Assembly: GCF_024700885.2 (NCBI RefSeq)
Contig: NZ_CP117016.1
Length of the DNA: 64,000 bases
Direction: 5' to 3' (one strand)
Source: Escherichia coli
Lineage (GTDB): Bacteria > Pseudomonadota > Gammaproteobacteria > Enterobacterales > Enterobacteriaceae
In this document: one piece after another, positions 29,779 to 60,421 of the stretch
How positions within the stretch are numbered: position 1 is the stretch's first letter
Layout: each line of letters begins with the position of its first letter
Notes under the pieces: model-generated
What the model was told of the DNA's origin: nothing
The model's database searches: none
What the model saw: the letters and a program-made list of their open reading frames with translations, nothing else
Made by a program: the position numbers and the translations under genes

Positions 29779-32223
29779 TTACGCGGCTTCAACTTTCCGC
29801 ACTTTCTCCGGCAACTTTACCGGCTTCGTCGCCAGCTCTTCCGGATCAAAGTCATCAACGTTAATACTGCGCAGACGGCTTTCTTCAGCTTTCACCAGAA
29901 TAGCGGCTTCATCTTTATCAATCAGCCCCTTCGCCAGCGCGTTGTGCGCCAGTTCATCCAGACGGGTAAATGGCAGATTTTTACCCAGCTCTTTACAGAT
30001 CCGCTGATGAATCGGGTCGGCGGCAATCACATCCACTAGCGCCTCTTCCAGTAAACCAACCGGGTTATGCTCGCTTGGCGTCAGGTACTGACCGCGACCA
30101 ATACGTGAACGAGTGGCGTTCGGCACTTGTAAAATCTTCGCCACTTTATGATCCAGCTTGTCAGACGGTGCCAGATAATGACGTCCGGTCGGGAAGATCA
30201 CCACATTCAGCAGCCCGGCAACCACGCGGTTCGGGAAGTTTTGCAGTAAATCATCCATCGCCTGTTCAGCCTGATACAGCGCATCCTGTACGCCCCAGTG
30301 CACCAGCGGCAGGTCGGCTTCATTACGGCCTTCGTCGTCATAACGCTTCAGAACGGCAGAGGCGAGGTAAAGCTGGCTTAAAATATCCCCCAGACGTGCC
30401 GAGATACGCTCGCGACGTTTCAGGCTGCCGCCCAGCACCGCCATCGAGACATCAGAAAGCAGGGCGAGGTTGGCGCTCAGGCGGTTCAGATGCTGATAGT
30501 AGCGTTTAGTGGCATCGCCGGTTGGCGTGCTGCTGGTTAAACCGCGCGTCAGGCCCAGCCAGAAGCTGCGAACTTTGTTGCTACCGACGTGACCGATATG
30601 TTTAAACAGCAGTTTATCGAACGCGTTGACGTCATTGTTCTTCGCCGCTTCCATCTCTTCCAGCACGTACGGATGGCAACGAATCGCTCCTTGTCCGAAG
30701 ATCATCATGCTGCGGGTCAGAATGTTAGCCCCTTCAACGGTGATGGCAATCGGCGCGCCCTGGTAAGCACGCGCCAGGAAGTTGCTCTGCCCGAGCATAA
30801 TGCCTTTGCCACCAGTGATATCCATCGCATCAATAATCGACTGCTGCCCACGGTGGGTACAGTGATACTTAACGATAGCCGACAGCACGGCAGGTTTTTC
30901 GCCGAGCATAATGCCGTAGGTAATCAGCGACGCCGCAGCATCCATCACATAGGCATTACCGGCAATACGCGCCAGCGGCTCTTCAATCCCTTCCATCTTA
31001 CCAATAGAGATTTTGAACTGACGGCGAATGTGCGCATACGCGCCCGTTGCCAGCGCTACCGATTTCACACCGCCGGTTGAGTTGGAAGGCAGGGTGATGC
31101 CGCGGCCTACCGAGAGGCACTCCACCAGCATCCGCCAGCCTTGTCCGGCCATTTTCGGCCCGCCGATGATGTAATCGATCGGTACGAAGACATCTTTACC
31201 GCGCGTCGGTCCGTTCTGGAACGGTACGTTCAGCGGGAAGTGGCGACGACCAATTTCCACGCCCGGCGTGGTAGTCGGGATCAGCGCACAGGTAATACCT
31301 AAATCTTCTGCACCGCCGAGTAATTTCTCCGGGTCGGAGAGTTTAAACGCCAGCCCAAGCACGGTCGCAATCGGTGCGAGCGTAATGTAGCGTTTGTTCC
31401 AGGTCAGACGCATCCCCAGCACCTGCTGGCCCTGCCATTCACCCATGCAGACAATCCCGGTATCCGGAATCGCGCCCGCATCGGAACCCGCTTCGGGGCT
31501 GGTCAGTGCAAAGCAAGGGATCTCCTGACCACGCGCCAGACGCGGCAGATAGTGATTTTTCTGCTCGTCAGTGCCGTAATGTTGCAGCAGCTCGCCCGGG
31601 CCTAATGAGTTCGGCACGCCGACGGTAATTGCCAGGATCCCGCTCACGCCGGAGAGTTTTTGCAGCACACGAGATTGGGCATAAGCCGAGAACTCCAGCC
31701 CGCCGTACTCTTTTTTGATGATCATCGCGAAGAAACGATGCTCTTTAAGGTACGCCCACAACTCCGGCGGCAGATCCGCCAGCTCATGAGTAATCTGGAA
31801 ATCATTCGCCATCCGGCAGGCTTCTTCTACCGGGCCGTCGAGAAACGCTTGCTCTTCTGCGGTCAGGCGCGGCTGCGGATAGTTATGCAGCTTTTTCCAG
31901 TCCGGCTTGCCCTGGAACAAGTCGCCCTCCCACCAGGTGGTGCCCGCATCAATCGCTTCTTTCTCAGTGCGCGACATCGGCGGCATTACCTTACGGAAAC
32001 CGCGAAATACCGGCGCGGAAATCATCGACTTACGCATAGGCGCAAAGTTAAATGGCACGAGGATAATGGCCAGAGGCACCAGTACCCACGCCGACCACAG
32101 ACCAGCAACGCCGAGGGCGGCTGTCCAGGCGAGCAAAATCAGACTGCTGATAAATAAGCTCACGCGGTGATAGAACAACGCGCCGAGCAGGACAACCGTA
32201 GCGAGAATACTCAAAATCATCAT
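29779..32223 (-). CDS. fadE: Acyl-CoA dehydrogenase FadE
   Basis: Track ORF is 840 aa; the likely start is the internal [19 protein letters not shown] at 32223, giving 814 aa. Confidence 0.9.
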
Positions 32224-32462
32224 AACGAAAAGCCCCTTACTTGTAGGAGGTCTGACCACTTGTGATGATATGGTTGTAGTGGATGTAAAAACATTTAGCA
32301 ATGTGTTTACAATATAATTACAACAAAGCTCACATTGTTGCTGTTTTTATCCGCACTTCAGGTCAAAAAGTCCTGGTCATAGCACCTGCCCGTACTTCTC
32401 GCTTTTGGCGGTATCCGGTACACTGCATTTTGTCTATTACATTTATGCTGAAGGATATCCTC

Positions 32463-33041
32463 ATGTACCAGGATCTTATTCGTAACGAACTGAACGAAGC
32501 GGCGGAAACGCTGGCTAACTTTTTAAAAGATGACGCCAATATTCACGCCATTCAGCGCGCGGCGGTCCTGTTAGCAGACAGCTTTAAAGCCGGTGGCAAA
32601 GTGCTTTCCTGCGGCAACGGCGGCTCCCATTGCGACGCTATGCACTTTGCCGAAGAGTTGACCGGTCGCTACCGTGAAAACCGTCCGGGCTACCCGGCGA
32701 TTGCCATTTCTGACGTTAGTCATATTTCCTGCGTCGGTAACGATTTTGGTTTCAATGATATTTTCTCCCGTTACGTTGAAGCGGTAGGTCGCGAAGGCGA
32801 TGTACTGCTGGGGATCTCCACCTCCGGTAACTCTGCAAACGTGATCAAAGCGATCGCGGCGGCGCGTGAGAAGGGGATGAAAGTGATCACCCTGACCGGT
32901 AAAGACGGCGGTAAAATGGCTGGCACAGCGGATATCGAAATTCGTGTTCCGCACTTTGGTTATGCCGACCGCATTCAGGAGATCCACATTAAAGTGATCC
33001 ATATCCTGATCCAGTTAATTGAAAAAGAGATGGTTAAGTAA
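32463..33041 (+). CDS. gmhA: Phosphoheptose isomerase GmhA
   Basis: 192 aa from [23 protein letters not shown] domain ([20 protein letters not shown]). Confidence 0.9.
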
Positions 33042-33045
33042 GGTC

Positions 33046-33090
33046 TTTTCTCCCTCTCCCTTTCAGGGAGAGGGCCGGGGTGAGGGTAAC
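33046..33090. repeat. GC-rich imperfect palindromic intergenic element after gmhA
   Basis: ctccctctccc tttcag ggagaggg ccggggtgaggg; shares the ggagaggg...gggtgaggg motif with 42888-42930. Confidence 0.35.
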
Positions 33091-33162
33091 AGCCTGAACC
33101 TTTGTACTTTTTAATCAATCTTCGCCGGGGGCCATGTGCTCCCGCTGTTGTGGAGGTTACCC

Positions 33163-33930
33163 ATGTGCGAATTGCTCGGGATGAGCGCCAACGTCCCTAC
33201 CGATATCTGCTTTAGTTTCACCGGGCTTGTACAGCGTGGTGGTGGAACCGGGCCACATAAAGATGGCTGGGGCATCACCTTTTACGAAGGTAAAGGCTGT
33301 CGCACATTTAAAGATCCACAACCCAGCTTTAATTCCCCCATCGCCAAACTTGTCCAGGACTACCCGATAAAATCCTGTTCGGTGGTGGCTCATATTCGCC
33401 AGGCGAATCGGGGCGAGGTGGCGCTGGAAAATACTCACCCGTTTACCCGCGAGTTATGGGGGCGTAACTGGACTTATGCCCATAATGGGCAACTGACGGG
33501 CTATAAATCACTGGAAACCGGCAACTTCCGCCCGGTCGGTGAAACCGACAGCGAAAAAGCCTTCTGCTGGCTCCTGCATAAATTAACGCAGCGTTACCCG
33601 CGCACACCGGGCAACATGGCGGCAGTGTTTAAATATATCGCCTCACTGGCGGATGAACTGCGGCAGAAGGGCGTTTTCAACATGCTGCTTTCTGACGGGC
33701 GCTATGTAATGGCGTATTGCTCGACTAATTTACACTGGATCACCCGCCGCGCGCCGTTTGGCGTGGCAACGTTGCTGGATCAGGATGTGGAAATCGACTT
33801 CAGCTCGCAGACCACACCGAATGATGTGGTCACGGTGATTGCGACACAGCCGCTGACGGGCAATGAAACCTGGCAAAAGATTATGCCAGGCGAATGGCGC
33901 TTATTTTGCCTCGGGGAGCGTGTAGTTTGA
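33163..33930 (+). CDS. yafJ: Class II glutamine amidotransferase-like protein YafJ
   Basis: Starts [19 protein letters not shown] (N-terminal Cys nucleophile). Confidence 0.85.
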
Positions 33931-35747: not shown

Positions 35748-36104
35748 TTACATCTGGGCTGAAAACTCACGTTCTAAGACATCAACAATGAGCTGGTTTT
35801 TTGAAATGGAATGTTGTCTGGCGACGATGGTCAGCCGCGAATCAATGTGATGAGGAACACGAAGCGTCAGGCGTTTTTGCTCTTCTTCTTCACGAAAAGG
35901 GGCAATACCGTCCTCTTCACAATCCGCCATCCACTCATCCAGCGCGCTTTCGCCTTCACGATATAATGCCTCAATACTTGTGGCTACAAAGTCACAATAA
36001 CCGTTTACATTGAGGAACTTGCCGCGAAATGCGTTGATATCGGCTTCAAATGTCACTGCGGCTGGTTGACCTTTAATTGTGATAATGTTCGATGCTTTAT
36101 TCAT
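35748..36104 (-). CDS. HicB-like antitoxin with C-terminal ribbon-helix-helix
   Basis: 118 aa; HicB-like core (YCDFVATSIEALYREGESALDEWMADCEEDGIAPF) and an RHH-like tail (KRLTLRVPHHIDSRLTIVARQHSISKNQLIVDVLE); overlaps the upstream ORF by 8 nt. Confidence 0.5.
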   Translation of the reverse strand: MNKASNIITIKGQPAAVTFEADINAFRGKFLNVNGYCDFVATSIEALYREGESALDEWMADCEEDGIAPFREEEEQKRLTLRVPHHIDSRLTIVARQHSISKNQLIVDVLEREFSAQM

Positions 36105-36396
36105 AATCTACCCCTACACAGTTAACAAACCACTCCTTAAGACCTGCTACTGCGCCTTTATCCATCACATTCTTTGGATGTGGCTCATGTGTGCTGAATT
36201 TGGTCGTTCCAATCTGAAATTTTCGTCTGGAGCCGTTGTTATTTTTTATTGTTCCACCCACAGCTTTAATGAGTGCAACAACATCATCCCATTTAATTCC
36301 AGATTTTGGCGGCTCCGTCATTACATCGTCGAATGTTTTTCTATGACGAGAGCCTAGCGCGCTGACCTTAATCATACTATCAATCCATGACGTCAT
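36097..36396 (-). CDS. HicA-like toxin (YcfA family) with N-terminal extension
   Basis: 99 aa; HicA-like pattern GSRRKF...THEPHPKNVMDKGAVAGLKEW; first gene of the two-gene pair. Confidence 0.5.
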   Translation of the reverse strand: MTSWIDSMIKVSALGSRHRKTFDDVMTEPPKSGIKWDDVVALIKAVGGTIKNNNGSRRKFQIGTTKFSTHEPHPKNVMDKGAVAGLKEWFVNCVGVDYE

Positions 36397-36479
36397 TGTA
36401 TGGTGTCATCGTAGTCTCTTTGCAGTGTGACGTCAATTAATGGTGTCAGGTGCTGCAAAGCATGGAAAAGATTCCTCAA

Positions 36480-38573
36480 TCAACTCAACGCCCCCATAAT
36501 CTTCAACTCCAGCTCATCCGGCACTTCGTTATACGACAGCACATGCAGCCCCGGCGCAAACAATCTCGCATAGCGCGCCAGCAAAGGACGCAACTGCGGC
36601 GGCACCAGCAGCACCGGGTCTTTCCCCGCCGCTTTCATCTGCTCCTTCACCTGCGGCATCGTGATCTGAAACTGGTTGAGCATATTCGGGTCAACCGGTA
36701 CGCTGTCGAGCATCACTTTCCCGCCCTGTTGCGCCTGATTCACCACGTTGGTCAGCAGATTTTCCAGCTCATTATTCAGCGTATACACCGTCAGCTCCTG
36801 CTTGCGAACGAGCGGATGGGTAATGCTGCGCCGTAGCGCCAGGCGCACATCAGCTGCCAGCAGAATATGATCTTTGGTCACTGTGCTACTGGCGACCAGC
36901 ACGGTGGCGATGGTGACGATATCGCGCAGGGAAACGCCTTCAGTCAGTAGCGCCCGGTACACTTTCAGCAACTGGCTGTAATTGAGCGCCGCGCTCAAAT
37001 CTTCCGCCAGTCGCGGTGCCATCGACGACAAACGGTTATGCAGCTGAGTAATATCGTCATAGTTAAACAAATCAGGAATATAGCTGCGGACAATCTTGTT
37101 CACATGGGTGGCAATCACGCTGGCGCTGTCGATCACCTGATACCCCATATTCAGCGCCTTCGCTTTCTGCGCAGGCTGAATCCAGGTGACCGGCATCCCG
37201 TACGCCGGGTCGTTCCCCAATACGCCGTCTATCTCGCCGTAGGTTTCGCTGGAGGGCAGGGCCATCAGTTTATCCGCCGGAATATCCGCTTCATCAGCCT
37301 TAATGCCGTTGATGAAAATGGCGTACTGGCTGGGCTTGAGGCGGAAATTTTCCCGAATGCGGATCTCCGGCAGCAGCACGCCGTTGCCGTCGGAAATCAC
37401 CTGCCGCACGCCGCGAATCCGCTGGGTGAGCGGGTTACCTTGGGCTTTATCGACCAGCGCCACCAGCTTGTAGCCGAGGCTTAAGCTGATGGGCTCGATC
37501 AGCGGAATGGTTTCCCAACTGACCTGTTGCTCGCTGGTTTCAGTGATAGTGCGGGTCAGCGTTTCGAGACTTTTCTCTTCTGCCTCCGCCGCCTGCGGGC
37601 GTTTGCTCATCCGCCAGCCGGTAAAGCCAAGCAGGGCGCTGAACAGCAAAAACGGCAGATGCGGCATTCCCGGCACCACCGCCAGTACGAACATGATCCC
37701 GGTGGCGGTGTAGAGCACCGACGGGCTTGCCAGCAGCTGGTGGCGCACGTCATGGGCGATATCGCCGTTGTCGCTGACGCGGGTGACGATAATCGCCGCC
37801 GCGGTGGAAAGCAGCAGGGAAGGGATCTGCGCCACCAGGCCGTCGCCGATGGTCATCAGCACATATTGCTGGAAGGCGGCGTCGGCGCTCAGGTTGTATT
37901 TGAAGATCCCGATACAGACGCCGCCGATCAGGTTGATCGCCAGAATCATCATCCCGGCTATGGCATCCCCACGCACAAACTTCGATGCCCCGTCCATCGC
38001 GCCGTAGAAATCGGCCTCGCTGGCAACATCTTTACGCCGTGTTTGCGCCTGCGCCTGGTTGATCAACCCGGCGTTAAGATCGGCGTCAATCGCCATCTGT
38101 TTGCCGGGCATCGCGTCCAGGGTAAAGCGGGCGGAAACCTCGGAAATACGCTCGGCCCCTTTGGTGACGACGATAAAGTTGATGATCATCAGGATGATAA
38201 ACACCACGAAACCGACGACAAAGTTGCCGCCAATCACCACCTGACCAAATGACTCAATCACCTTACCTGCTGCGCCCGCGCCGAGATGCCCGTGCAGTAG
38301 CACCACGCGCGTAGAAGCAACGTTCAGCGTCAGGCGCATTAAGGTGGTGATCAGCAAAATGGTCGGGAACAGGCTGAATTCCAGCGGCCTTTTCGCCGAC
38401 ACCGCCACCAGCAGCACCATCACCGCCAGCACAATGTTGAAGGTGAACAGAATATCCAGCAGCGCAGGCGGCAGCGGCAAAATAACCATCGCCAGAATAC
38501 ACAGGATCACCAGCGGCACGCCGGGATTACCGCCGCGCAGTAGCGCGAGGAACGATTTAGTTGTTTTCGCCAT
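36480..38573 (-). CDS. lfhA: Flag-2 (lateral flagellar) export gate protein, FlhA homologue
   Basis: 697 aa, apparently full length; N-terminal TM region and FlhA signature (FTLDAMPGKQMAIDADLNAGLI). Confidence 0.85.
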   Translation of the reverse strand: MAKTTKSFLALLRGGNPGVPLVILCILAMVILPLPPALLDILFTFNIVLAVMVLLVAVSAKRPLEFSLFPTILLITTLMRLTLNVASTRVVLLHGHLGAGAAGKVIESFGQVVIGGNFVVGFVVFIILMIINFIVVTKGAERISEVSARFTLDAMPGKQMAIDADLNAGLINQAQAQTRRKDVASEADFYGAMDGASKFVRGDAIAGMMILAINLIGGVCIGIFKYNLSADAAFQQYVLMTIGDGLVAQIPSLLLSTAAAIIVTRVSDNGDIAHDVRHQLLASPSVLYTATGIMFVLAVVPGMPHLPFLLFSALLGFTGWRMSKRPQAAEAEEKSLETLTRTITETSEQQVSWETIPLIEPISLSLGYKLVALVDKAQGNPLTQRIRGVRQVISDGNGVLLPEIRIRENFRLKPSQYAIFINGIKADEADIPADKLMALPSSETYGEIDGVLGNDPAYGMPVTWIQPAQKAKALNMGYQVIDSASVIATHVNKIVRSYIPDLFNYDDITQLHNRLSSMAPRLAEDLSAALNYSQLLKVYRALLTEGVSLRDIVTIATVLVASSTVTKDHILLAADVRLALRRSITHPLVRKQELTVYTLNNELENLLTNVVNQAQQGGKVMLDSVPVDPNMLNQFQITMPQVKEQMKAAGKDPVLLVPPQLRPLLARYARLFAPGLHVLSYNEVPDELELKIMGALS

Positions 38574-39696
38574 CCAGTTTAAGCACCTCTTTGGGAATGG
38601 AAATATGTCTGTTCAGGGCCGGGCGCGGCTGTGCGCCGTCGCGCCAGTGTTTCATTTGCAGGACGTAGGTCAGAACGTGGGCGATGGCCCGGTAAAGCTG
38701 AAACGGAATTTGCTGGTTCACCTGGGTGGTGTAGTAAACCGAGCGCGCCAGCCGCGGGAACTCGACCACTTCCACCTGATTCTCAGCAGCGACCTGACGA
38801 ATATAGAGGGCGATTTCATCGGTGCCTTTCGCCACCACAAACGGCGCGGCGGCGCGCGACTGGTCGTACTGCAACGCTACGGCGTAGTGGGTCGGGTTGG
38901 TGATCACCACGTTGGCTTTTGGCACCACTTTGCGGATTTGCCCCATCGCCAGCTGCCGTTGCAGCCGCCGCACGCGTGCCTTCACTTCCGGCTTGCCTTC
39001 CTGATTTTTGTACTCTTCTTTCAGCTCCTGCTTGGTCATCTTCAGTCCTTTGGTGAACAGGGCTTTCGCCAGCGGCACGTCGATTAACGCAAAGAAGATA
39101 AACAGGATGACAAAGTTGCGCATCACGCTGGCGTAGAGCGATAAACCGTCATTCATCGCCAGTTTGAACGGTAGTGCCTGCAGGCCGAGAAAGGCGGCAA
39201 AGTTATTGCGCAGGCTTACCCACAGCATCACCAGCACCACCACCGACTTCACCGTCATCTTTCCCGTTTCCGCCAGATGTTCGCTGGAAAACAGTCGCCC
39301 AATGCCTTTTAACGGGCTGATTTTGCTGAAATCCGGGAGGATTTTTTTCGGCAGAAACAGCCAGCCGCCGGGCACCAGCGAAGAGAGCAGCGCGGCGGCG
39401 GGCATCGGTAGCAAGGTAAGAATAAACTTGCCGAGAATTAACAGGTGATGGCGCAGAAACTGGCCGAGCACCTGCGGGTTATTAATCTCCTGCGCATACT
39501 GATGCACGCTGATAAAACTCTCGCGTACAAAATCGGCGTACCACGGAAAACTGCTGGAGATCACCACAAACGCCGCAAACAGGCTCGCCGCTAGCCCCAT
39601 ATCCTTCGAGCGCGGCAGTTGCCCCTCTTCACGCGCTTTACGCAGCTTTTGCGCCGAGGGTTTCTCTGTTTTTTCTTCGCTGCTGCTATCCGCCAT
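38557..39696 (-). CDS. lfhB: Flag-2 export protein, FlhB homologue
   Basis: 379 aa; NPTH autocleavage motif (VVITNPTHYAVAL). Confidence 0.85.
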   Translation of the reverse strand: MADSSSEEKTEKPSAQKLRKAREEGQLPRSKDMGLAASLFAAFVVISSSFPWYADFVRESFISVHQYAQEINNPQVLGQFLRHHLLILGKFILTLLPMPAAALLSSLVPGGWLFLPKKILPDFSKISPLKGIGRLFSSEHLAETGKMTVKSVVVLVMLWVSLRNNFAAFLGLQALPFKLAMNDGLSLYASVMRNFVILFIFFALIDVPLAKALFTKGLKMTKQELKEEYKNQEGKPEVKARVRRLQRQLAMGQIRKVVPKANVVITNPTHYAVALQYDQSRAAAPFVVAKGTDEIALYIRQVAAENQVEVVEFPRLARSVYYTTQVNQQIPFQLYRAIAHVLTYVLQMKHWRDGAQPRPALNRHISIPKEVLKLDGENN

Positions 39697-40519
39697 AGTG
39701 ACCTTTCAGCGCGTCGAGTTGCTGCAACACAAAATTCGCCAGATGCAGATAGTGATCCGGCAGGTTGTAGAGCAGGGTGGCGAAGCAGACCAGCCCCGCC
39801 AGCATGTTGATGGGAAAGCCGAGCGAAAAGAGGTTCAGCGGCGGCGCGATGCGGTTGAGCAGGCCAAAGCAGCCCTGCACAATCAGCATGATAAAGGTGG
39901 TCGGCAGCGCCAGCAGCGATGCGGACGCCAGCACCCAGCTAAAGGCCAGTGCGATGGTGCGCAGGGGTTGCGGATGCAGCGCGTTGCCAATCGGCCAGTA
40001 GGTGAAGCCCTTATACAAAACACTCACCAGCAACAGATGCCCGTCCATGGCAAAAAACAGCAGGATTGCGTAGACGTTGATTAACTCCGCCAGCACGGTG
40101 GTCGATGCGCCGCTGCTCGGGTCGTTCATCACCGCCATGCTCATCCCCATATTGAACGAGAGAATTTGCCCGGCCAGTTGCAGCGCCAGAAACAGAAACT
40201 GAAACATCAGCCCGAACAACATGCCCCATAATATTTGCTCCACCGTCAGGATCAGGCTGTTGAGCGATAGCAGGTCGTGGGGAATGGGATGGGGGATCAA
40301 CGGCGTGATGATGATTGCCAGCGCCAGCGACAAAATGATCCGCACACGCACGGTCAGGGCGCTGTTATCCAGCACCGGCACATAGCGCAGAAACGCCATA
40401 ATGCGCACGAAGGGAAACCACAGCCCCATCGCCAGATCCATCAGTTGCGTAACGTCGCTTGTACGCATCTTAATGCACCAGCAACGCGGCCTGGGTAAAC
40501 AGATGAATACACAGATCAT
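39686..40519 (-). CDS. lfiR: Flag-2 export protein, FliR homologue
   Basis: 277-aa polytopic membrane protein between the FlhB and FliQ homologues. Confidence 0.75.
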   Translation of the reverse strand: MICVFICLPRPRCWCIKMRTSDVTQLMDLAMGLWFPFVRIMAFLRYVPVLDNSALTVRVRIILSLALAIIITPLIPHPIPHDLLSLNSLILTVEQILWGMLFGLMFQFLFLALQLAGQILSFNMGMSMAVMNDPSSGASTTVLAELINVYAILLFFAMDGHLLLVSVLYKGFTYWPIGNALHPQPLRTIALAFSWVLASASLLALPTTFIMLIVQGCFGLLNRIAPPLNLFSLGFPINMLAGLVCFATLLYNLPDHYLHLANFVLQQLDALKGHYGG

Positions 40520-40742
40520 GCAACTGGATAATCATCCATTTGCCGCACACGCCCAGCACCACCAGCGTGACAATCAGCCTCGGCAAAAAACTCAGGGTCT
40601 GTTCGTTAATCTGCGTCACCGCCTGGAACACGCTCACCAGCAGGCCAACCAGCAGGCTCGGCACTACCAGCACGGAAACCAGCAAAATCACCACTTTTAT
40701 GCCGCTCGCGACAATGTCGGCGGCTACGTCTACGGTCAACAT
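40470..40742 (-). CDS. lfiQ: Flag-2 export protein, FliQ homologue
   Basis: 90 aa, two hydrophobic helices; position between the FliP and FliR homologues. Confidence 0.75.
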   Translation of the reverse strand: MLTVDVAADIVASGIKVVILLVSVLVVPSLLVGLLVSVFQAVTQINEQTLSFLPRLIVTLVVLGVCGKWMIIQLHDLCIHLFTQAALLVH

Positions 40743-40744
40743 AA

Positions 40745-41497
40745 TCAGCCCAGCCCCAGCCCGCGAATGCTGGTGGTGAGCGTACCGATTGTCAGCGACC
40801 AGCCGTCGATCAGCACAAACAGCATCAGTTTAAAGGGCAGCGAAACAATCAGCGGCGACAGCATCATCATCCCCATCGCCATCAATACGCTGGCGACAAT
40901 CAGGTCGATAACCAGAAACGGGATGTAAATCATAAAGCCAATCTGGAAGGCGGTTTTCAGCTCGCTCAACACATAGGCAGGCACCACGATGGAGAGATCC
41001 TGATCGGCGGCATTGCCCTTCGCGCCGCCGATGGTCATGATTTGCGCCATCGCTTTTTTGTCGGTCTGCGCCAGCATAAAGCGTTTGAGCGGCGTCGCGG
41101 CGGTGCTTAATGCATCGGTCAGGGTAATCTGATCGTTTTCGAACGGCACTACCGCGTGGTCGTAAATATTGAGCCAGATAGGGCGCATCACCAGCATAGT
41201 GAGTGAGAGCGCAATACCAATCAAAATGCGGTTTGGCGGCGTTTGTTGCAGCCCCAGCGCCTGGCGCAGCAGCGACAGCACGATAATAAAGCGCGTAAAG
41301 CAGGTCATCATCAGCACCATCGTCGGCAGCAAACCGACGAGGGTCATCAGAATCAGTACCTGAATTTTGACGCTGTACTCCTGAGTGTTGCCGTGGGTGA
41401 CCACGTTAAGCAGCGCAATATCGCCACCCTGGGCTAACGCCAGCGGCGCAAGCGCCAGCAGCCCAAGGCCCAGCGTCAGTTGAGTGCGGCGTTTCAT
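40745..41497 (-). CDS. lfiP: Flag-2 export protein, FliP homologue
   Basis: 250 aa; signal peptide and FliP-like membrane core. Confidence 0.8.
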   Translation of the reverse strand: MKRRTQLTLGLGLLALAPLALAQGGDIALLNVVTHGNTQEYSVKIQVLILMTLVGLLPTMVLMMTCFTRFIIVLSLLRQALGLQQTPPNRILIGIALSLTMLVMRPIWLNIYDHAVVPFENDQITLTDALSTAATPLKRFMLAQTDKKAMAQIMTIGGAKGNAADQDLSIVVPAYVLSELKTAFQIGFMIYIPFLVIDLIVASVLMAMGMMMLSPLIVSLPFKLMLFVLIDGWSLTIGTLTTSIRGLGLG

Positions 41498-41925
41498 GGT
41501 GCCAGGTCGTTGATATCGCGGGTGTTAAACTCCAGCACGCGCAGGCCGTACTTCTCGTTGACCACCACCACTTCTGCTTTGCCCAACAGGATATTGTTTA
41601 CTTTAATATCCAGCGGCTCCCCGGCGAGCTTATCCAGCTCAATCACCGTGTCGTCGTCGATGTTAAGGAGGTCGGCTAACATGATCTCTACTGATGACAC
41701 TTCCAGCGTTAAGGTCACCGGAATGCGTTTTAGCAGCGTCATCGAGTCGGAAAAACGGTCTTCCAGGCGGGTGACCAGCGTTTCAGCGTCGGCAGATTTC
41801 GCGACAGGCGCAACTTCATCGGTGAGGCCAAAATCCCCGGCTAAAATATCTTCTTGCTTACTCATGGCTATTCTCATTTTTGCCCGCCAGCTCCGACAAA
41901 AACAGTTTGTCTTTGTCTTCCACAA
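41494..41925 (-). CDS. lfiN: Flag-2 C-ring protein, FliN homologue
   Basis: 143 aa; SpoA-like C-terminus (IDDDTVIELDKLAGEPLDIKVNNILLGKAEVVVVNEKYGLRV). Confidence 0.7.
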   Translation of the reverse strand: MWKTKTNCFCRSWRAKMRIAMSKQEDILAGDFGLTDEVAPVAKSADAETLVTRLEDRFSDSMTLLKRIPVTLTLEVSSVEIMLADLLNIDDDTVIELDKLAGEPLDIKVNNILLGKAEVVVVNEKYGLRVLEFNTRDINDLAP

Positions 41926-42709
41926 TCAGGGCGCTAAATAATTCAGATTGCCCAATCGCCACCGGGAACGTTTCTCCCAGCGAGATGGGTAAAATATCCC
42001 CGGCTTTTATCTGCGTGAGATCCGCGACATTCAGCGACAGCTCGGCGATTTTGACGTTCAGGGTCAGCGGCAGAGAGCGGATAATCTCTTTAATCAGGGC
42101 CGGTTTATTAACGGATTTCGCCACCTGCTGCGGTTTACTGTGCTCGCTGTGGCGGATCAGATTCAAAATAAAATCGGTGTGGGCGTCGTCGAGCAAAATA
42201 CGAAAACTGCTCTCTTCATCGCCCGCAAGGGTAAAGGTTAATTGATACGCCCAGTGGGTAATCACCGTGCTGCTATCCAGCTTTAATTTCAGCGCAATAC
42301 CGGAGGTTTGCAGATTAAATATCAGCGTGCAGATATCCAGCGCGAGTCGGTTTTTTAAACGAGTTTCGGTTTTGGTCGGCAGCCCGTTATGCGCTTTCGC
42401 CTCTTCAAGAGAGGACTCCAGACCATAAAAATTGCCCAGCAGCATTAACAATAAGGAGCGATCAATATCAAACGCCAGATGCCCGACCTGGGAAACCATC
42501 AGTTCGGCGTTTTTATTAATAATATCCATTTCGCAGCCAATCTTTTTTAAGGTGATATTGCTGCGATGCTTTTTGAGAAAGTAGCTGCCCAGATGCGAAT
42601 CAATCACGTCAAAATTCCCCGTAAACAGGGTCGGCAGGCGATGGTAGGGGCGTCCGAGCCGATTACCTTCTAATTTAAAGATGCCTGGCGTTTTACTGTA
42701 CTTCAGCAT
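41858..42709 (-). CDS. lfiM: Flag-2 C-ring protein, FliM homologue
   Basis: 283 aa; position upstream of the FliN homologue; C-terminal FliN-like segment. Confidence 0.65.
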   Translation of the reverse strand: MLKYSKTPGIFKLEGNRLGRPYHRLPTLFTGNFDVIDSHLGSYFLKKHRSNITLKKIGCEMDIINKNAELMVSQVGHLAFDIDRSLLLMLLGNFYGLESSLEEAKAHNGLPTKTETRLKNRLALDICTLIFNLQTSGIALKLKLDSSTVITHWAYQLTFTLAGDEESSFRILLDDAHTDFILNLIRHSEHSKPQQVAKSVNKPALIKEIIRSLPLTLNVKIAELSLNVADLTQIKAGDILPISLGETFPVAIGQSELFSALIVEDKDKLFLSELAGKNENSHE

Positions 42710-42887
42710 GGCTTACTTTCTCTGCTGTAATGGTATGGGTGTTTCTGTGCACGCAAATCCGGCTGTGACACAAGGTGAGGTATTAAATAGAGGGGGAGTG
42801 AAAGGGGCAAATTATTAATAGGATGAAAAAATAATTAATCGATTAATTGCTTAATGGGAGTGATTTTCGCCAATCAGTCTGCGGTCT

Positions 42888-42930
42888 GTCCCCTCGCCCC
42901 ATCCGGGGAGAGGGTTAGGGTGAGGGGGCA
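42888..42930. repeat. GC-rich palindromic intergenic element in the lfiM-lafK gap
   Basis: gtcccctcgcccc atcc ggggagagggttagggtgaggggg; same motif family as 33046-33090. Confidence 0.35.
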
Positions 42931-43081
42931 TCACAGATGTCCAAATTAACAGTATTAATATCTAACTAATTGTTTACCATCAAATAATATTTTTATTATC
43001 GTTTAATTCGAACTTGTTAATCCCGCCGGTGATACGCTTCAGAACATCCTGTTTTCTGTCGCTACTTATATCGTTCACCCT

Positions 43082-43349
43082 ATGTCTGAACTTATTGCAA
43101 CTGCCGCTTCCAGCATTAACGCTTTTACTCTGGCAAAGCGTGTCGCCGCATTTAACGTGCCGGTGCTCATTCAGGGCGAAACCGGCGCGGGCAAAGAATG
43201 CGTGGCAAAATATATTCACACCGTCGCCTTTGGTGAAAATGATAACGCGCCCTATATCGGCGTGAACTGCGCGGCGATCCCGGAAAACATGCTGGAAGCT
43301 ACATTATTTGGCTACGACAAAGGCGCATTTACCGGCGCAATTGCCAGCG
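43082..43349 (+). pseudogene. lafK: 5' fragment of a sigma-54-dependent activator (LafK-like) truncated by IS1
   Basis: AAA+ sigma-54 activator motifs (VLIQGETGAGKECVAKYIH...NCAAIPENMLEATLFGYDKGAFTGA); the reading frame runs into the IS1 inverted repeat and terminates. Confidence 0.7.
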
Positions 43350-44117
43350 GGTGATGCTGCCAACTTACTGATTTAGTGTATGATGGTGTTTTTGAGGTGC
43401 TCCAGTGGCTTCTGTTTCTATCAGCTGTCCCTCCTGTTCAGCTACTGACGGGGTGGTGCGTAACGGCAAAAGCACCGCCGGACATCAGCGCTATCTCTGC
43501 TCTCACTGCCGTAAAACATGGCAACTGCAGTTCACTTACACCGCTTCTCAACCCGGTACGCACCAGAAAATCATTGATATGGCCATGAATGGCGTTGGAT
43601 GCCGGGCAACCGCCCGCATTATGGGCGTTGGCCTCAACACGATTTTCCGCCATTTAAAAAACTCAGGCCGCAGTCGGTAACCTCGCGCATACAGCCGGGC
43701 AGTGACGTCATCGTCTGCGCGGAAATGGACGAACAGTGGGGATACGTCGGGGCTAAATCGCGCCAGCGCTGGCTGTTTTACGCGTATGACAGGCTCCGGA
43801 AGACGGTTGTTGCGCACGTATTCGGTGAACGCACTATGGCGACGCTGGGGCGTCTTATGAGCCTGCTGTCACCCTTTGACGTGGTGATATGGATGACGGA
43901 TGGCTGGCCGCTGTATGAATCCCGCCTGAAGGGAAAGCTGCACGTAATCAGCAAGCGATATACGCAGCGAATTGAGCGGCATAACCTGAATCTGAGGCAG
44001 CACCTGGCACGGCTGGGACGGAAGTCGCTGTCGTTCTCAAAATCGGTGGAGCTGCATGACAAAGTCATCGGGCATTATCTGAACATAAAACACTATCAAT
44101 AAGTTGGAGTCATTACC
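43350..44117 (+). mobile_element. insAB: IS1 insertion sequence (768 bp) encoding InsA and InsB
   Basis: Terminal inverted repeats ggtgatgctgccaacttactgat (left) and atcaataagttggagtcattacc (right); InsA ORF 43405..43680, InsB ORF 43599..44102. Flanking 9-mers differ (ttgccagcg vs ggaatgcct). Confidence 0.9.
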
Positions 44118-44118
44118 G

Positions 44119-44274
44119 GAATGCCTGACGGAAATGAAATTTGAAGATTTGCGCGGCATGAAAATATCCGCCATCCGCAAACTGATTTCTGATGCGCTAA
44201 AGAAAGATCTTCAGCGTCGCAAAATGAGCGCACCGTATAAGGATTTGCTGGTGAAAAAAGTGGTCTTCCAGTAA
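44119..44274 (+). pseudogene. 3' remnant of a Flag-2 gene, possibly the FliL-like lafF
   Basis: Open frame from the IS1 boundary encoding ...ISAIRKLISDALKKDLQRRKMSAPYKDLLVKKVVFQ stop; no start codon; sits directly upstream of lafS. Confidence 0.4.
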
Positions 44275-44293
44275 TCACCAGGCGGATATAAAC

Positions 44294-45010
44294 ATGCTAC
44301 AGGACGTATTCGAGTCAGAAGAATTTGCTGCCGCGCCGGTATTAACCCCGCAGCAGGAGAGCCACTACTTGCAGGCCTATTTACCGTTGGTGCGTAAAGT
44401 GGTGCGGCAACTTGCCCCGCAGTGTAATTGCATTATTGATCGTCAGGATATGGAACAAATGGCGTTAATGGGGCTGCTTAATGCCATTCGTCGCTACGGG
44501 CTGCCGGACGAAGGTTTTGCGGGCTATGCCGTGCACCGTATTCGCGGCGCGATCCTGGATGAGCTGCGCGCTCTCGACTGGCGACCGCGCCAGCTGCGAC
44601 AGAAATATCATCAGATGAAAGATCTGATACGCGAAACGCGTAAAAAACTGGGGCACGAACCGGAGTGGTCAGAACTGGCCGTGGAAGGGATTTCGCATGA
44701 AGATTATATCGAATATCAGCAACTGGAAGGGGCGGAAACGCTCGCCAGCCTTGACGAACTGCTGAACGGCGAAGGGCCAGGCATTCCACTTGTTGGCAGG
44801 GAACTGGAAGATCAGTTTGTCACCCAGCAAATGCTGCAATACGCGCTTTCACTATTAAGCGAAAAAGAGCAACTGATCCTCTCCATGTATTACCAGCATG
44901 AGATGAATCTCAAAGAGATTGCGCTGGTATTAGGGCTAACCGAGGCCCGAATTTGTCAACTGAATAAACAGATCGCGCAGAAAATTCGTGATTTTGTCTA
45001 TCCGAATTAA
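44294..45010 (+). CDS. lafS: Flag-2 sigma-28-type sigma factor (FliA homologue)
   Basis: 238 aa; sigma-70 family regions 2 and 4 (HRIRGAILDELRALDW; NLKEIALVLGLTEARICQL). Confidence 0.8.
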   Translation: MLQDVFESEEFAAAPVLTPQQESHYLQAYLPLVRKVVRQLAPQCNCIIDRQDMEQMALMGLLNAIRRYGLPDEGFAGYAVHRIRGAILDELRALDWRPRQLRQKYHQMKDLIRETRKKLGHEPEWSELAVEGISHEDYIEYQQLEGAETLASLDELLNGEGPGIPLVGRELEDQFVTQQMLQYALSLLSEKEQLILSMYYQHEMNLKEIALVLGLTEARICQLNKQIAQKIRDFVYPN

Positions 45011-45022
45011 AGTGAAGAAATC

Positions 45023-45886
45023 ATGCAAAAAATATTAGGTTTACTGGTGGTGCTCGGCTGCGTATTTGGCGGTTATTTTGAAGCGGGCGGGCAACTAGTG
45101 GCTATCTGGCAACCGGCGGAGATGATCATTATTTTGGGTGCCGGTTTCGGGGCGATGATTATTGGTAATCCGAAACATGTGCTGAAAGAGATTGCTCATC
45201 AAATTAAAGGCGTGATCAGTAAAAAACAGCTCGGGCCGGAGTTTCAGCGTCAGCTATTAATGTGCCTGTATGAGTTGCTCGAAATGGTACAAAACGGCGG
45301 CCTGCGCATGTTGGATCAGCATATTGAGCAGCCGGAAGAGAGCACCGTTTTCCAGAAATACCCGCTGGTGTTAACCCAGAAGCGGCTGGTGACCTTTATT
45401 GCCGATAACTTTCGCCTGATGGCGATGGGCAAAATCGACGCCCACGAACTGGAAGGCATTCTCGATCAGGAGCTGGATACCGCCGAAGAGTCGCTGCTCA
45501 CGCCGTCGCGCTCGCTGCAACGTACCGCCGAAGCGATGCCGGGATTTGGTATTTGCGCGGCGGTGCTGGGCATCATCATCACCATGCAGTCGATTGATGG
45601 ATCTATCGCCCTGATTGGCCTGAAAGTGGCGGCGGCTCTGGTGGGGACGTTTTTAGGCGTCTTTATCTGCTACTGCCTGATGGACCCGCTTGCCAACGCC
45701 ATGGAACAACAGGCGCGGGCGGAACATTCTTTGCTGGAATGTGTGCGTACCGTGCTGGTGGCGCAGGCGGGCGGTAAACCGACGCTGCTGGCGGTAGACG
45801 CCGGGCGTAAGCTGCTGCATCTAGCGTCCAAACCGACCTTCGCCAACCTCGACGCGTGGGTGAATGCGATGCTGGAGCAAGAATAA
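45023..45886 (+). CDS. lafT: Flag-2 stator protein, MotA homologue
   Basis: 287 aa; four-TM MotA-like architecture. Confidence 0.85.
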   Translation: MQKILGLLVVLGCVFGGYFEAGGQLVAIWQPAEMIIILGAGFGAMIIGNPKHVLKEIAHQIKGVISKKQLGPEFQRQLLMCLYELLEMVQNGGLRMLDQHIEQPEESTVFQKYPLVLTQKRLVTFIADNFRLMAMGKIDAHELEGILDQELDTAEESLLTPSRSLQRTAEAMPGFGICAAVLGIIITMQSIDGSIALIGLKVAAALVGTFLGVFICYCLMDPLANAMEQQARAEHSLLECVRTVLVAQAGGKPTLLAVDAGRKLLHLASKPTFANLDAWVNAMLEQE

Positions 45887-45888
45887 GC

Positions 45889-46812
45889 ATGAGAAAGACG
45901 GGCAACCGCCGCGAGCGTGGGGCAAAAACCACCATCGTCCGGCGGCAGATCAAAAAGAATCATGCCGGGCATCACGGCGGGGCGTGGAAGGTGGCGTTCG
46001 CCGACTTTACTTTGGCAATGATGGCGCTATTTATGACGCTGTGGATTGTCAACAGCGTCAGTAAATCCGAGCGTGAAAGCATTATCGCCGCGCTGCACGG
46101 GCAGTCGATTTTCAATGGCGGCGGGTTGTCGCCGTTAAATAAAATCAGCCCGTCTCATCCGCCAAAACCTGCCACCGTGGCGGTGCCGGAAGAGACGGAG
46201 AAAAAAGCGCGTGACGTCAATGAGAAAACGGCGCTGCTGAAGAAGAAATCAGCCACTGAGCTTGGCGAGCTGGCGACCAGTATCAACACCATTGCCCGTG
46301 ATGCACATATGGAAGCGAATCTGGAGATGGAGATTGTTCCCCAGGGACTGCGCGTGCTGATTAAAGATGACCAGAACCGCAATATGTTTGAACGCGGCAG
46401 CGCACAGATTATGCCGTTCTTTAAAACTTTGCTGGTGGAGCTCGCGCCAGTGTTCGACTCGCTCGATAACAAAATTATTATTACCGGGCATACCGATGCG
46501 ATGGCCTACAAAAACAATATCTACAACAACTGGAACCTTTCGGGCGATCGCGCGCTTTCGGCTCGTCGGGTGCTGGAAGAGGCCGGAATGCCGGAAGATA
46601 AAGTGATGCAGGTGAGCGCGATGGCGGACCAGATGCTGCTGGACGCGAAAAATCCGCAAAGCGCGGGCAACCGACGCATTGAGATTATGGTGCTGACCAA
46701 AAGTGCGTCCGATACGCTGTATCAATACTTTGGTCAGCATGGGGATAAAGTGGTGCAGCCGCTGGTGCAAAAGCTGGATAAGCAGCAGGTGCATTCGCAG
46801 CGAACGCGCTAG
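45889..46812 (+). CDS. lafU: Flag-2 stator protein, MotB homologue
   Basis: Likely start at MRKTGNRRERG (45889; track ORF begins 45856); single TM helix and OmpA-like C-terminal domain (NWNLSGDRALSARRVLEEAG). Confidence 0.85.
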   Translation: MRKTGNRRERGAKTTIVRRQIKKNHAGHHGGAWKVAFADFTLAMMALFMTLWIVNSVSKSERESIIAALHGQSIFNGGGLSPLNKISPSHPPKPATVAVPEETEKKARDVNEKTALLKKKSATELGELATSINTIARDAHMEANLEMEIVPQGLRVLIKDDQNRNMFERGSAQIMPFFKTLLVELAPVFDSLDNKIIITGHTDAMAYKNNIYNNWNLSGDRALSARRVLEEAGMPEDKVMQVSAMADQMLLDAKNPQSAGNRRIEIMVLTKSASDTLYQYFGQHGDKVVQPLVQKLDKQQVHSQRTR

Positions 46813-46850
46813 ATGCTGAATCTTTACGCATTTCTCAAACCCTGAAATCA

Positions 46851-46866
46851 CTGTATACTTTACCAG
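46851..46866 (+). promoter_or_regulatory. LexA (SOS) box upstream of dinB
   Basis: CTGTATACTTTACCAG matches the CTGT-N8-ACAG consensus, 17 nt upstream of the dinB start. Confidence 0.7.
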
Positions 46867-46882
46867 TGTTGAGAGGTGAGCA

Positions 46883-47938
46883 ATGCGTAAAATCATTCAT
46901 GTGGATATGGACTGCTTTTTCGCAGCGGTGGAGATGCGCGACAATCCCGCCCTGCGCGATATCCCTATTGCTATTGGCGGCAGCCGCGAACGTCGGGGGG
47001 TGATCAGCACCGCCAATTATCCCGCGCGTAAATTTGGCGTACGTAGCGCTATGCCGACAGGGATGGCGCTCAAATTATGCCCACATCTCACCTTGCTTCC
47101 GGGGCGCTTTGACGCCTACAAAGAAGCCTCAAATCATATCCGTGAAATCTTCTCGCGCTACACCTCGCGTATTGAACCGTTGTCACTGGATGAAGCCTAT
47201 CTCGATGTCACTGATAGCGTCCATTGCCACGGTTCTGCGACCCTCATCGCCCAGGAAATCCGCCAGACGATTTTCAGCGAGCTGCAACTGACGGCGTCTG
47301 CGGGCGTGGCACCAGTAAAGTTTCTCGCCAAAATCGCCTCCGACATGAATAAACCCAACGGCCAGTTTGTGATTACGCCGGCAGAAGTTCCGGCATTTTT
47401 ACAAACCTTACCACTGGCAAAAATCCCCGGCGTCGGCAAAGTCTCGGCGGCAAAACTGGAAGCGATGGGGCTGCGGACCTGCGGTGATGTACAAAAGTGT
47501 GATCTGGTGATGCTGCTTAAACGCTTTGGCAAATTTGGCCGCATTTTGTGGGAGCGTAGTCAGGGGATTGACGAACGCGATGTTAACAGCGAACGGTTGC
47601 GAAAATCCGTCGGCGTGGAACGCACGATGGCGGAAGATATTCATCACTGGTCTGAATGTGAAGCGATTATCGAGCGGCTGTATCCGGAACTTGAACGCCG
47701 TCTGGCAAAGGTGAAACCTGATTTACTGATTGCTCGCCAGGGGGTGAAATTAAAGTTTGATGATTTTCAGCAAACCACTCAGGAGCACGTCTGGCCGCGG
47801 CTGAATAAAGCTGATCTAATCGCCACCGCGCGTAAAACCTGGGATGAACGCCGCGGCGGGCGCGGTGTGCGACTGGTGGGGCTGCATGTGACGTTGCTTG
47901 ACCCTCAAATGGAAAGACAACTGGTGCTGGGATTATGA
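46883..47938 (+). CDS. dinB: DNA polymerase IV (Y-family)
   Basis: 351 aa; [33 protein letters not shown]. Confidence 0.95.
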
Positions 47939-49378: not shown

Positions 49379-49945
49379 ATGGGATGGTACATGGGCAAAT
49401 CTATTCGTCCCTTATCCGATGCGGTATTTACCATCGCATCTGATGGCCTGTGGATCGAGAGTTTAGCGATCCAACAATTACACACCACGGCAAATTTACC
49501 CAACATGCAGCGCGTAGTAGGGATGCCAGATTTACACCCCGGACGCGGCTACCCGATTGGCGCAGCGTTCTTCTCCGCAGGCCGTTTTTACCCGGCAAGA
49601 CGTCGCGGTAACGGTGCTGGAAACAGAAACGGGCCGCTACTCTGACACGCTGCGTTCGGCGCTGATTTCTCTGGATGGCGATAACGCATGGGCATTAAGC
49701 GAAAGTTGGTGCGGCACTATTCAGTGGATTTGTCCGAGTCCGTATCGGCCTCATCATGGGCGCAAAAACTGGTTTCTGGGCATGCTAACAAGCGGCTGGC
49801 GCGATTGCTGATTGCCTGGAAGCTGGAACAACAGCAACAGGAAAATAGCGCGGCGCTGAAATCGCAGTGGCGAATGTTCCATCATCAAATTGAACGTGGC
49901 AACCCGCGACGGACATTTACAGGGATGGCTTTTATCGAAGGATAA
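49379..49945 (+). pseudogene. Remnants of an RtcB-like gene (ykfJ) and a release-factor homologue (prfH)
   Basis: Short ORFs 49379..49645 ([17 protein letters not shown], RtcB-like) and 49688..49945 (release-factor-like C-terminus) in different frames; neither full length. Confidence 0.55.
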
Positions 49946-57837: not shown

Positions 57838-57913
57838 GCCGATATAGCTCAGTTGGTAGAGCAGCGCATTCGTAATGCGAAGGTCGTAGGTTCGACTCCT
57901 ATTATCGGCACCA
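57838..57913 (+). tRNA. thrW: tRNA-Thr (anticodon CGU)
   Basis: 76-nt sequence gccgatatagctcagttggtagagcagcgcattcgtaatgcg...ggttcgactcctattatcggcacca with cloverleaf features and CGT in the anticodon loop. Confidence 0.9.
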
Positions 57914-58008
57914 TCACCTAGTTTTCCCAAGTCAACCCACATCAACAAAATCATTTAAAAACATATATATTACGTTGTTTTCATACGTTTGAGGTCAACC
58001 CTTGTCTC

Positions 58009-59268: not shown

Positions 59269-60089
59269 ATATTTTAAAAATTAATAATACTGATTCTCTG
59301 CTCAGAGATTACTACCAGTTGGATGAAGCTTCAGAAAAAATTGGTTGTAGTGAAAAGGATATACTCTGGTTTGCCAGAGAACGAGATGTAGAGCTATGCA
59401 TGGAATTCCATGATGATGAGTATGATGTTTCATGTGGTTTGAAGATTGATGGTCAAATGGATGAGTTCTTATCTAATCTGAAATATTTACCACGAGATAG
59501 AAATGGCAATATTATGTTGTCAGACTTAAGTTCTATAAGAATCCCTGATGAAGATAATTTAATTGATAAAAATGGTTTTATTCGATGTTTCATATCCGGT
59601 TTATGGGCTGTTGATTATGAATATAAAGATCTGTTAGTTAAGCATGAGGGGCAACCGGATTCCTGGCCTATTCATTTTCTACTGGCGGGTACGCCTAATA
59701 TAAATTGTAAGGTAATTCTTTATGTAAATTATGATGAAAAAGAAAATTATTATCTTTTTGAGGTTTTGTGGATTACAAAGGTACAGATTCAAAAATTCAT
59801 TGATATAGTCTTATGCGAACAAAAGCGGATAAAAAACGCCAATAAATATAAATCACAATCTGAGGCGCAAAAACAAAAACATGCTGTTCCTCGAGCTGAA
59901 ATACTCATGGCTATTATTTCGCTCTATCATCGTGATATGAGGCTAAGAAGAGAGAGTCCAGCAGCGATAGCTGATTATCTTTTTCAACATGCCAGTGAGT
60001 TCTGGCCTAAGACCGGAGAACCGCCTTTGAGCTATGATACTGTTGTTAGTTTGCTACGTAGTTGCATGAAAAACACTAAGTTTAACTAA
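59265..60089 (+). CDS. Hypothetical island cargo protein, AT-rich
   Basis: 274-aa ORF whose ATG overlaps the integrase stop (ATGA); N-terminal segment DYYQLDEASEKIGCSEKDILWFARE may be an excisionase-like HTH; the rest shows no motif I recognise. Confidence 0.55.
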   Translation: MNILKINNTDSLLRDYYQLDEASEKIGCSEKDILWFARERDVELCMEFHDDEYDVSCGLKIDGQMDEFLSNLKYLPRDRNGNIMLSDLSSIRIPDEDNLIDKNGFIRCFISGLWAVDYEYKDLLVKHEGQPDSWPIHFLLAGTPNINCKVILYVNYDEKENYYLFEVLWITKVQIQKFIDIVLCEQKRIKNANKYKSQSEAQKQKHAVPRAEILMAIISLYHRDMRLRRESPAAIADYLFQHASEFWPKTGEPPLSYDTVVSLLRSCMKNTKFN

Positions 60090-60214
60090 ATATTAACAAT
60101 TATTGTGGCTAATGATTTTGGATTTTTTTCATTAGTCACATTTTTCTCATTTATAACCTATGTTTTAATTTTCCGTGTTGAAGCCAATAGACTTAGATAA
60201 ACGGAGAATGATGA

Positions 60215-60421
60215 ATGTTATCTAAACATGATAATACTACTTTGCAACGACCTTCAATGGATTCTCTGATCGATATGAAGTTTATTACTTCCGATTGTTT
60301 ATTAAGTGATAAATGGATTTATCGATTGATTTCTCTGAATCGCTTTCCAAAACCTATAAAAATAGGTCGGATGTCACGATGGCGCGCTGCTGATTATTAT
60401 AAGTGGCGAGATGGGTTTTAA
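60215..60421 (+). CDS. alpA: AlpA-family phage transcriptional regulator
   Basis: 68 aa; HTH pattern (YRLISLNRFPKPIKIGRMSRWRAADYYKW). Confidence 0.6.
   Translation: MLSKHDNTTLQRPSMDSLIDMKFITSDCLLSDKWIYRLISLNRFPKPIKIGRMSRWRAADYYKWRDGF

Follow-up and report, generated by a model that had tools for sequence, protein, structure and literature searches.

An IS1-bridged remnant of the Flag-2 flagellar locus in Escherichia coli MLI114

Introduction

How does a flagellar locus come to keep both of its ends as intact genes when its middle is missing? This question is raised by a 64,000-nucleotide stretch of Escherichia coli DNA (hereafter the window), in which positions 36480–46812 hold the two ends of a Flag-2 flagellar gene cluster on either side of one copy of the insertion sequence (IS) IS1. 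An initial annotation of the window had described a partial cluster whose middle was lost at an IS1 junction, and had offered two reasons why the surviving open reading frames (ORFs) are still open, namely that the deletion is probably recent or that the remaining genes are under some constraint. The comparisons described below make it very probable that this is a complete Flag-2 locus from which IS1 recently removed the middle, with the missing genes lost rather than moved and the survivors open through recency. A complete Flag-2 locus was reportedly described by Ren et al. in 2005 in E. coli strain 042. De Maayer et al. (2020) surveyed the locus across Enterobacterales, and their published architecture, lfhAB-lfiRQPNM-lafK-lfiEFGHIJ, lfgN to lfgL and lafWZABCDEFSTU, is the source of the gene names used here (PMC6993521).

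Results

A megablast search of 5,426 complete E. coli genomes, the set to which all genome counts below refer, returned a single full-length 100% match to window positions 36000–47500, the chromosome of E. coli MLI114 (NZ_CP117013.1), which originates from human stool in Mali. MLI114 is an extended-spectrum beta-lactamase-producing isolate from a soldier with diarrhoea (PMC10198576); isolate MLI121 differs from it by 14 cgMLST alleles. As a reference for mapping the deletion we used strain 1190 (NZ_CP023386.1), which is near-identical and carries a complete Flag-2 locus without pseudogene flags. The parts of the remnant were identified from the ORF listing, the RefSeq annotation of the identical record and Pfam scans, all of which agree on ten intact genes and two gene fragments bridged by IS1:

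36480–38573, minus strand: lfhA, FlhA homologue (export gate); intact, 697 amino acids; Pfam FHIPEP, E=6.5e-242; accession WP_001140834.1, identical in strain 1190
38557–39696, minus strand: lfhB, FlhB homologue; intact, 379 amino acids; Pfam Bac_export_2, E=1.9e-108; accession identical in strain 1190
39686–40468, minus strand: lfiR, FliR homologue; intact, 260 amino acids; Pfam Bac_export_1; accession identical in strain 1190
40470–40742, minus strand: lfiQ, FliQ homologue; intact, 90 amino acids; Pfam Bac_export_3; RefSeq annotation
40745–41497, minus strand: lfiP, FliP homologue; intact, 250 amino acids; Pfam FliP, E=4.6e-76; RefSeq annotation
41494–41865, minus strand: lfiN, FliN homologue; intact, 123 amino acids; Pfam FliMN_C; RefSeq annotation
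41858–42709, minus strand: lfiM, switch protein in the FliM position; intact, 283 amino acids; Pfam FliMN_C at the C-terminus only; name taken from the syntenic lfiM in the complete locus
42710–43081, no strand: divergent lfiM–lafK spacer; AT-rich, guanine–cytosine (GC) fraction 0.43–0.46; GC-rich palindromic repeat at about 42877–42932
43082–43349, plus strand: lafK', 5' fragment of the sigma-54 activator gene; 89 of 328 codons, running into IS1 (…IASG*); Sigma54_activat positions 3–82 of 168
43350–44117, plus strand: IS1; complete, 768 bp; insA and insB' rightward; no target-site duplication
44119–44274, plus strand: 'lafF, 3' fragment of a FliL homologue; last 51 of 155 codons; RefSeq pseudogene, 'FliL family, missing N-terminus'; the full strain 1190 gene matches Pfam FliL
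44294–45010, plus strand: lafS, FliA-like sigma-28 factor; intact, 238 amino acids; Pfam Sigma70_r2 and r4; accession identical in strain 1190
45023–45886, plus strand: lafT, MotA homologue; intact, 287 amino acids; Pfam MotA_N and MotA_ExbB; RefSeq annotation
45889–46812, plus strand: lafU, MotB homologue; intact, 307 amino acids; Pfam MotB_plug and OmpA; RefSeq annotation

The homologues of FlhA, FlhB, FliR, FliQ, FliP, FliN and FliM that the initial annotation had placed on one side, and the FliA-like sigma factor with MotA and MotB that it had placed on the other, all lie where it had put them, with Pfam and RefSeq in agreement. Its roughly 90-codon 5' piece of lafK proved to be 89 codons long, and its roughly 50-codon 3' piece of another gene can now be named as the end of lafF. 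The IS1 joining the two fragments is complete, with both terminal repeats and with InsA and IS1 DDE domains. Genes for hook, rod, filament, ATPase and membrane–supramembrane (MS) ring, which had been reported missing, are indeed found nowhere in the remnant, and strain 1190 has 34 genes in the matching interval.

The remnant occupies the conserved E. coli Flag-2 site: its left end reads yafL-hicBA-lfhA and its right end lafU-dinB-yafNOP, the arrangement also found around complete loci. Its gene order also fits the published Flag-2, with lfhAB-lfiRQPNM and a divergent lafK from cluster 1, followed by the lafF-lafS-lafT-lafU end of cluster 3, and its DNA is 100% identical to that of strain 1190 and about 96% identical to other lineages. 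A complete Flag-2 comprises 39 conserved flagellar genes plus cargo; MLI114 lacks that full set, having lost cluster 1 from lafK on (lfiEFGHIJ), the whole of cluster 2 (lfgN to lfgL) and cluster 3 as far as lafF, which with cargo included amounts to the 34 missing genes. LafK, LafW and LafZ are the markers that De Maayer et al. used for calling a Flag-2 locus (PMC6993521). In MLI114 only 89 codons of lafK are left, and the deleted DNA covers the positions of lafW and lafZ; the locus is therefore a remnant rather than a complete member.

Alignment to a complete Flag-2 locus, the check proposed in the initial annotation, revealed one deletion with its ends joined by IS1. The window aligns to strain 1190 without gaps up to position 43349 and resumes at 44118, and 31,796 bp of strain 1190 lie between. 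Both breakpoints are exact to the single base (lafK codon 89::IS1 and IS1::lafF codon 104). The 34 whole genes that strain 1190 has in the deleted interval fall into the following groups: from cluster 1, lfiE, lfiF (MS ring), lfiG and lfiH/lfiI/lfiJ (ATPase complex); cargo genes for a cytidylyltransferase, a glycosyltransferase and a hypothetical protein; lfgN, lfgM, the two genes of a type II restriction-modification pair, and lfgA to lfgL (rod, rings, hook and junction); and lafW, a RelE/ParE toxin-antitoxin pair, lafZ, lafA (flagellin), lafB, lafC, lafD and lafE. As a side observation, the type II restriction endonuclease with its cytosine methyltransferase and the RelE/ParE-type toxin with its helix-turn-helix antitoxin (30805–33522 and 19010–19660 of the strain 1190 locus extract) are both addiction-type modules; losing such a module normally carries a penalty, yet the MLI114 clone survived.

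The element at the junction begins with GGTGATGCTGCC… on the left and finishes with …GGAGTCATTACC on the right (GGTAATGACTCC… as reverse complement), encodes InsA and DDE_Tnp_IS1 domains, and is named 'IS1B family transposase, programmed frameshift' in RefSeq. The nine bases flanking it on either side are unrelated (TTGCCAGCG versus GGAATGCCT), and the 8–9-bp target-site duplication of a simple insertion is absent, as expected where IS1 marks a deletion instead. Two strains examined as controls, in which IS1 has simply inserted into lfiM, do show a duplicated target (8 bp, CAGTTCAG, in strain D97-1; 9 bp, CGAAAACTG, in strain S1-THA-01-A), and no duplication is present in PEC408, Z503, J6 and AR_0081, the four further IS1-junction deletions for which the flanks were read. 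MLI114 thus has one IS at the junction, flanks colinear with the intact reference and no duplication, as expected of an IS-mediated adjacent deletion. An IS left at a deletion point without duplication is a documented outcome of either adjacent deletion or IS–IS recombination (PMC11708052), and the literature counts transposition, with IS1 named, among the major drivers behind en bloc flag-2 deletions (PMC6993521).

The deleted genes could in principle lie elsewhere in the genome, in which case the locus would record a translocation and not a loss. A 24.9-kb query from the deleted interval returned no MLI114 chromosome or plasmid record among its best 60 matches; seven matches were 99.9–100% identical (strain 1190, three O166:H15 strains, AST20, AST240 and E700025) and the next reached 96.6%. 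Similarly, four 1-kb markers (lafA, lfgE, lfiI and lfiF) matched eight records at 99% identity or above, none of them from MLI114. These searches uphold loss, as the initial annotation had read it. IS elements can in principle mobilise flanking DNA, but no evidence for this was found here, and we consider a move of the Flag-2 middle to another place in the MLI114 genome exceedingly improbable.

A junction of this kind could also arise if the MLI114 genome carried two IS1 copies around an intact middle that the assembler had collapsed. IS copies are classic collapse points and this assembly has been revised (version.2), but no record of it is among the matches of at least 99% to the deleted middle. 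In addition, the lafK::IS1 and IS1::lafF junctions recur in two unrelated metagenome assemblies, found by exact-protein look-up of the chimeric junction ORFs, although a single shared IS1 is not thereby proven. The 90-amino-acid product consisting of LafK residues 1–89 plus a glycine is encoded on a 15-kb scaffold (ERZ28599420 scaffold_1120), and the IS1-'lafF ORF on a scaffold of a different sample (ERZ28649604 scaffold_3369); these show no mismatches to the window over 6,322 and 1,198 bp, respectively, and each ends 54 bp into IS1. The allele therefore circulates in a small clone, beyond the one sequenced isolate, and is not the artefact of one assembly, leaving a collapsed repeat as a very unlikely explanation.

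Of the two reasons proposed for the open ORFs, recency is borne out by the comparison with strain 1190. Over 40,431 aligned bp the two strains differ by one mismatch, at window position 56991, far outside Flag-2; the retained Flag-2 DNA has no mismatches in 9,565 bp, and the RefSeq accessions of all ten retained proteins (10/10) are the same in this intact relative. At the short-term rates usually cited for E. coli, a single difference in 40 kb would put the separation on the order of decades, a rough figure whose Poisson error is very wide. The ten genes, all intact as had been claimed, are open because there has been too little time for mutations to build up, and no constraint need be invoked.

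The proposed constraint would mean that the retained genes are still selected; the export gate, the stators or LafS might, for instance, serve the primary flagellum or have some other role. In favour of this, the ten ORFs are all intact and several independent deletions likewise keep lfhAB-lfiRQPN and lafU; zero substitutions since the split from the intact-locus relative, however, leave no signal that could be attributed to selection, and the recurrent retention results largely from ranking matches by similarity to the window, as other remnants cut lfhA or lfhB. Moreover, the independent IS1-bridged remnant of strain J6 has an lfhB with an annotated internal stop (2573–3712 of the J6 locus extract), which weakly contradicts continued constraint and shows that retained Flag-2 genes decay once the middle is gone. 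In about 4,100 of the 5,426 genomes nothing but lfhA'/lafU' scars is left, and the complete Flag-2 of strain EC958 is unexpressed under laboratory conditions (PMC4637896). Continued selection is therefore unnecessary to the account, and we regard it as very improbable.

Judging from the functions of the gene families, the remnant should be unable to build a flagellum. Such a structure would lack its MS ring and FliG, the FliHIJ ATPase complex, and the rod, rings, hook, junction proteins, filament and cap, and its assembly would also have to proceed without chaperones, an anti-sigma factor or a working LafK master activator. The break in LafK falls inside the AAA+ domain, and the lid and DNA-binding domains are gone. 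To the right of IS1, lafS-lafT-lafU start 20 bp after 'lafF and the upstream part of their transcription unit is lost; these genes would also have lost any promoter formerly upstream in the lafB–lafF stretch. A search for the sigma-54 consensus TGGCAC-N5-TTGCW, with at most two mismatches, gave no matches in the lfiM–lafK spacer and a window-wide count below chance, so that what is said here of regulation follows the published model rather than the MLI114 sequence. A sigma-70 and terminator scan of the junction picked up only the known promoter-like site at the left end of IS1 and nothing above shuffle expectation.

The deletion has removed both lfgM, encoding the anti-sigma factor, and the master activator, and has kept lafS, lafT and lafU, which lie directly downstream of IS1 and share the orientation of its transposase genes. 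If read-through from IS1 transcribed lafS or lafTU, unrestrained sigma-28 or extra stators could cross-talk with the primary flagellum and the allele would be adaptive and not neutral, a scenario to which we give little credence.

We next place the MLI114 remnant among the species' Flag-2 loci. At 80% coverage or above, the left block is carried by 1,289 genomes, the right block by 1,300 and the 24.9-kb middle by 1,250, and at least one of the four middle markers is present in 1,291. About 24% of the genomes thus have Flag-2, and almost all others retain only end scars. With a query made of both ends plus the right flank, which ranks joined remnants above complete loci and scars, we found joined partial clusters in ten genomes. 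Eight are bridged by IS1 (MLI114, J6, Z503, PEC408, AR_0081, D72, 1506 and USDA-ARS-USMARC-51688) and two are IS-free fusions (52F4, lfiF'::lafB'; PSJ-22, lfiF'::lafU'). The breakpoints differ in every one of the ten, and neither MLI114 junction occurs in another complete genome (two 300-bp queries).

The seven other IS1-bridged clusters resemble MLI114 in that a single IS1 joins the left and right remnants. They differ in their left breakpoints, which range from lfhA to the start of lafK, in their right breakpoints, which range from lafA to beyond lafU, and mostly in having IS1 in the opposite orientation, with IS1 copies 93–99% identical to that of MLI114; only MLI114 is cut in lafK and lafF. 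Given these different breakpoints, orientations and IS1 copies, they represent independent events. The scar of most E. coli, a K-12-type lfhA'-lafU' pseudogene fusion, shares with MLI114 the en bloc loss of the interior, the retention of both ends and the site, but is ancient and widespread, has no IS at its junction and has been ascribed to direct repeats (PMC6993521). It also cuts inside lfhA and lafU, whereas the deletion in MLI114 is confined to one clone, has IS1 as its bridge and spares ten genes in full.

An apparent clustering of the breakpoints of other strains near those of MLI114 was partly an effect of ranking by query coverage, and a broader query added remnants cut in lfhA or lfhB. 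Among the left-side Flag-2 IS1 junctions of other strains, seven of ten fall in lfiM or the lfiM–lafK spacer (window 41858–43081), and this segment is the AT-richest of the left block (GC 0.43–0.51, against 0.54–0.62 elsewhere). IS1 may prefer lfiM and the spacer as targets, with the proviso that the match ranking is biased to remnants that retain much DNA. As a weaker variant of the adaptive scenario above, the AT-rich lfiM/lafK-spacer region may be a true IS1 hotspot, making Flag-2 loss recurrent and predictable.

Discussion

As to how IS1 removed the middle, we lean somewhat towards adjacent deletion. IS1 would first have inserted at one of the two sites, in lafK or in lafF; one end of the element would then have attacked the other site on the same chromosome, an intramolecular replicative transposition known as 'adjacent deletion'; and one IS1 copy would have stayed behind without a target duplication, the excised DNA being lost on a non-replicating circle. 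A similar outcome is known from long-term E. coli lines, in which deletions associated with IS150 or IS1 likewise kept the IS at the deletion point, lacked target-site duplication and removed tens of kilobases (PMC11708052). In those lines the precursor insertion was observed at earlier time points, and none is available for MLI114.

Alternatively, two IS1 copies in the same orientation could have inserted independently in lafK and lafF, and RecA-dependent homologous recombination between them could have excised the middle together with one IS1. Recombination of this kind gives exactly the structure observed, with a single IS1, no matching target duplication and colinear flanks; duplication-free IS copies have two documented causes, of which this is one (PMC11708052), and IS1 has repeatedly struck the Flag-2 locus in other strains. 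It requires, however, two independent insertions in one 32-kb locus, whereas adjacent deletion, which we favour for this reason, needs only one prior insertion; IS1-matching places in the whole genome number only about seven. Neither single insertion was found among the complete genomes, and the IS-associated deletions of long-term evolution all traced to a single resident IS and adjacent deletion (PMC11708052). IS1–IS1 recombination is accordingly a possible but doubtful route.

Several points weigh against our account of a recent, IS1-mediated adjacent deletion. A precursor with IS1 at just one of the sites and an intact middle was found in none of the complete genomes (the same two 300-bp junction queries), and draft and metagenome contigs break inside IS1, where the two sides are not linkable. 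We infer both the order of events and the choice of adjacent deletion over IS1–IS1 recombination. The absence of the deleted DNA from the rest of the MLI114 genome rests on ranked match lists, which a copy of another lineage at 95–99% identity could escape. Finally, non-expression of the retained genes is a presumption, and the lfiM–lafK spacer yielded no sigma-54 promoter consensus.

IS-driven en bloc decay of Flag-2 has already been described (PMC6993521), and MLI114 is an ordinary instance of it. The present analysis adds only the exact breakpoints and a name for the 3' fragment (lafF), shows that the deletion is recent and, in a small census, finds IS1 to be the usual agent. Past bookkeeping this matters little, as a precisely mapped example of IS erosion of an accessory flagellar locus already missing from most E. 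coli. The two junctions, lafK codon 89::IS1 and IS1::lafF codon 104, nevertheless form a clone-specific marker, so far seen in one complete genome and two metagenome scaffolds, that could trace the lineage. Likewise, about ten partial clusters in 5,426 genomes, eight of them IS1-bridged, put numbers on what the literature states only qualitatively.

Other features of the window

Close to the remnant, a hicA/hicB toxin-antitoxin pair abuts lfhA (window 35748–36375), where other lineages have rayT, a repetitive extragenic palindromic (REP)-associated tyrosine transposase, and a dinJ-yafQ pair between dpaA and yafL is variably present. Within the AT-rich lfiM–lafK spacer, a GC-rich imperfect palindrome (…CCCCTCGCCCCATCCGGGGAGAGGGTTAGGGTGAGGGGG…) lies at window 42847–42962. 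Because the alignments to all other lineages break exactly there, it looks like a mobile intergenic repeat.

Further to the left, window 1–28163 carries a type VI secretion cluster (tssA to tssB, Hcp and VgrG) followed by two Rhs core pseudogenes, whose internal repeats are 87% identical (18944–21061 versus 23746–25863), and an ISAs1 transposase gene at 27027–28163. On the right, window 57838–64000 is an integrated satellite-type island, with tRNA-Thr (57838–57913), a tyrosine integrase gene (58078–59268) and P4-like genes for an Icd-like protein and a TOPRIM/DUF927 primase. Between Flag-2 and this island, rtcB and prfH are fused pseudogene fragments at window 49391–49945; the same fusion is found in strain 1190, and both genes are intact in PSJ-22.

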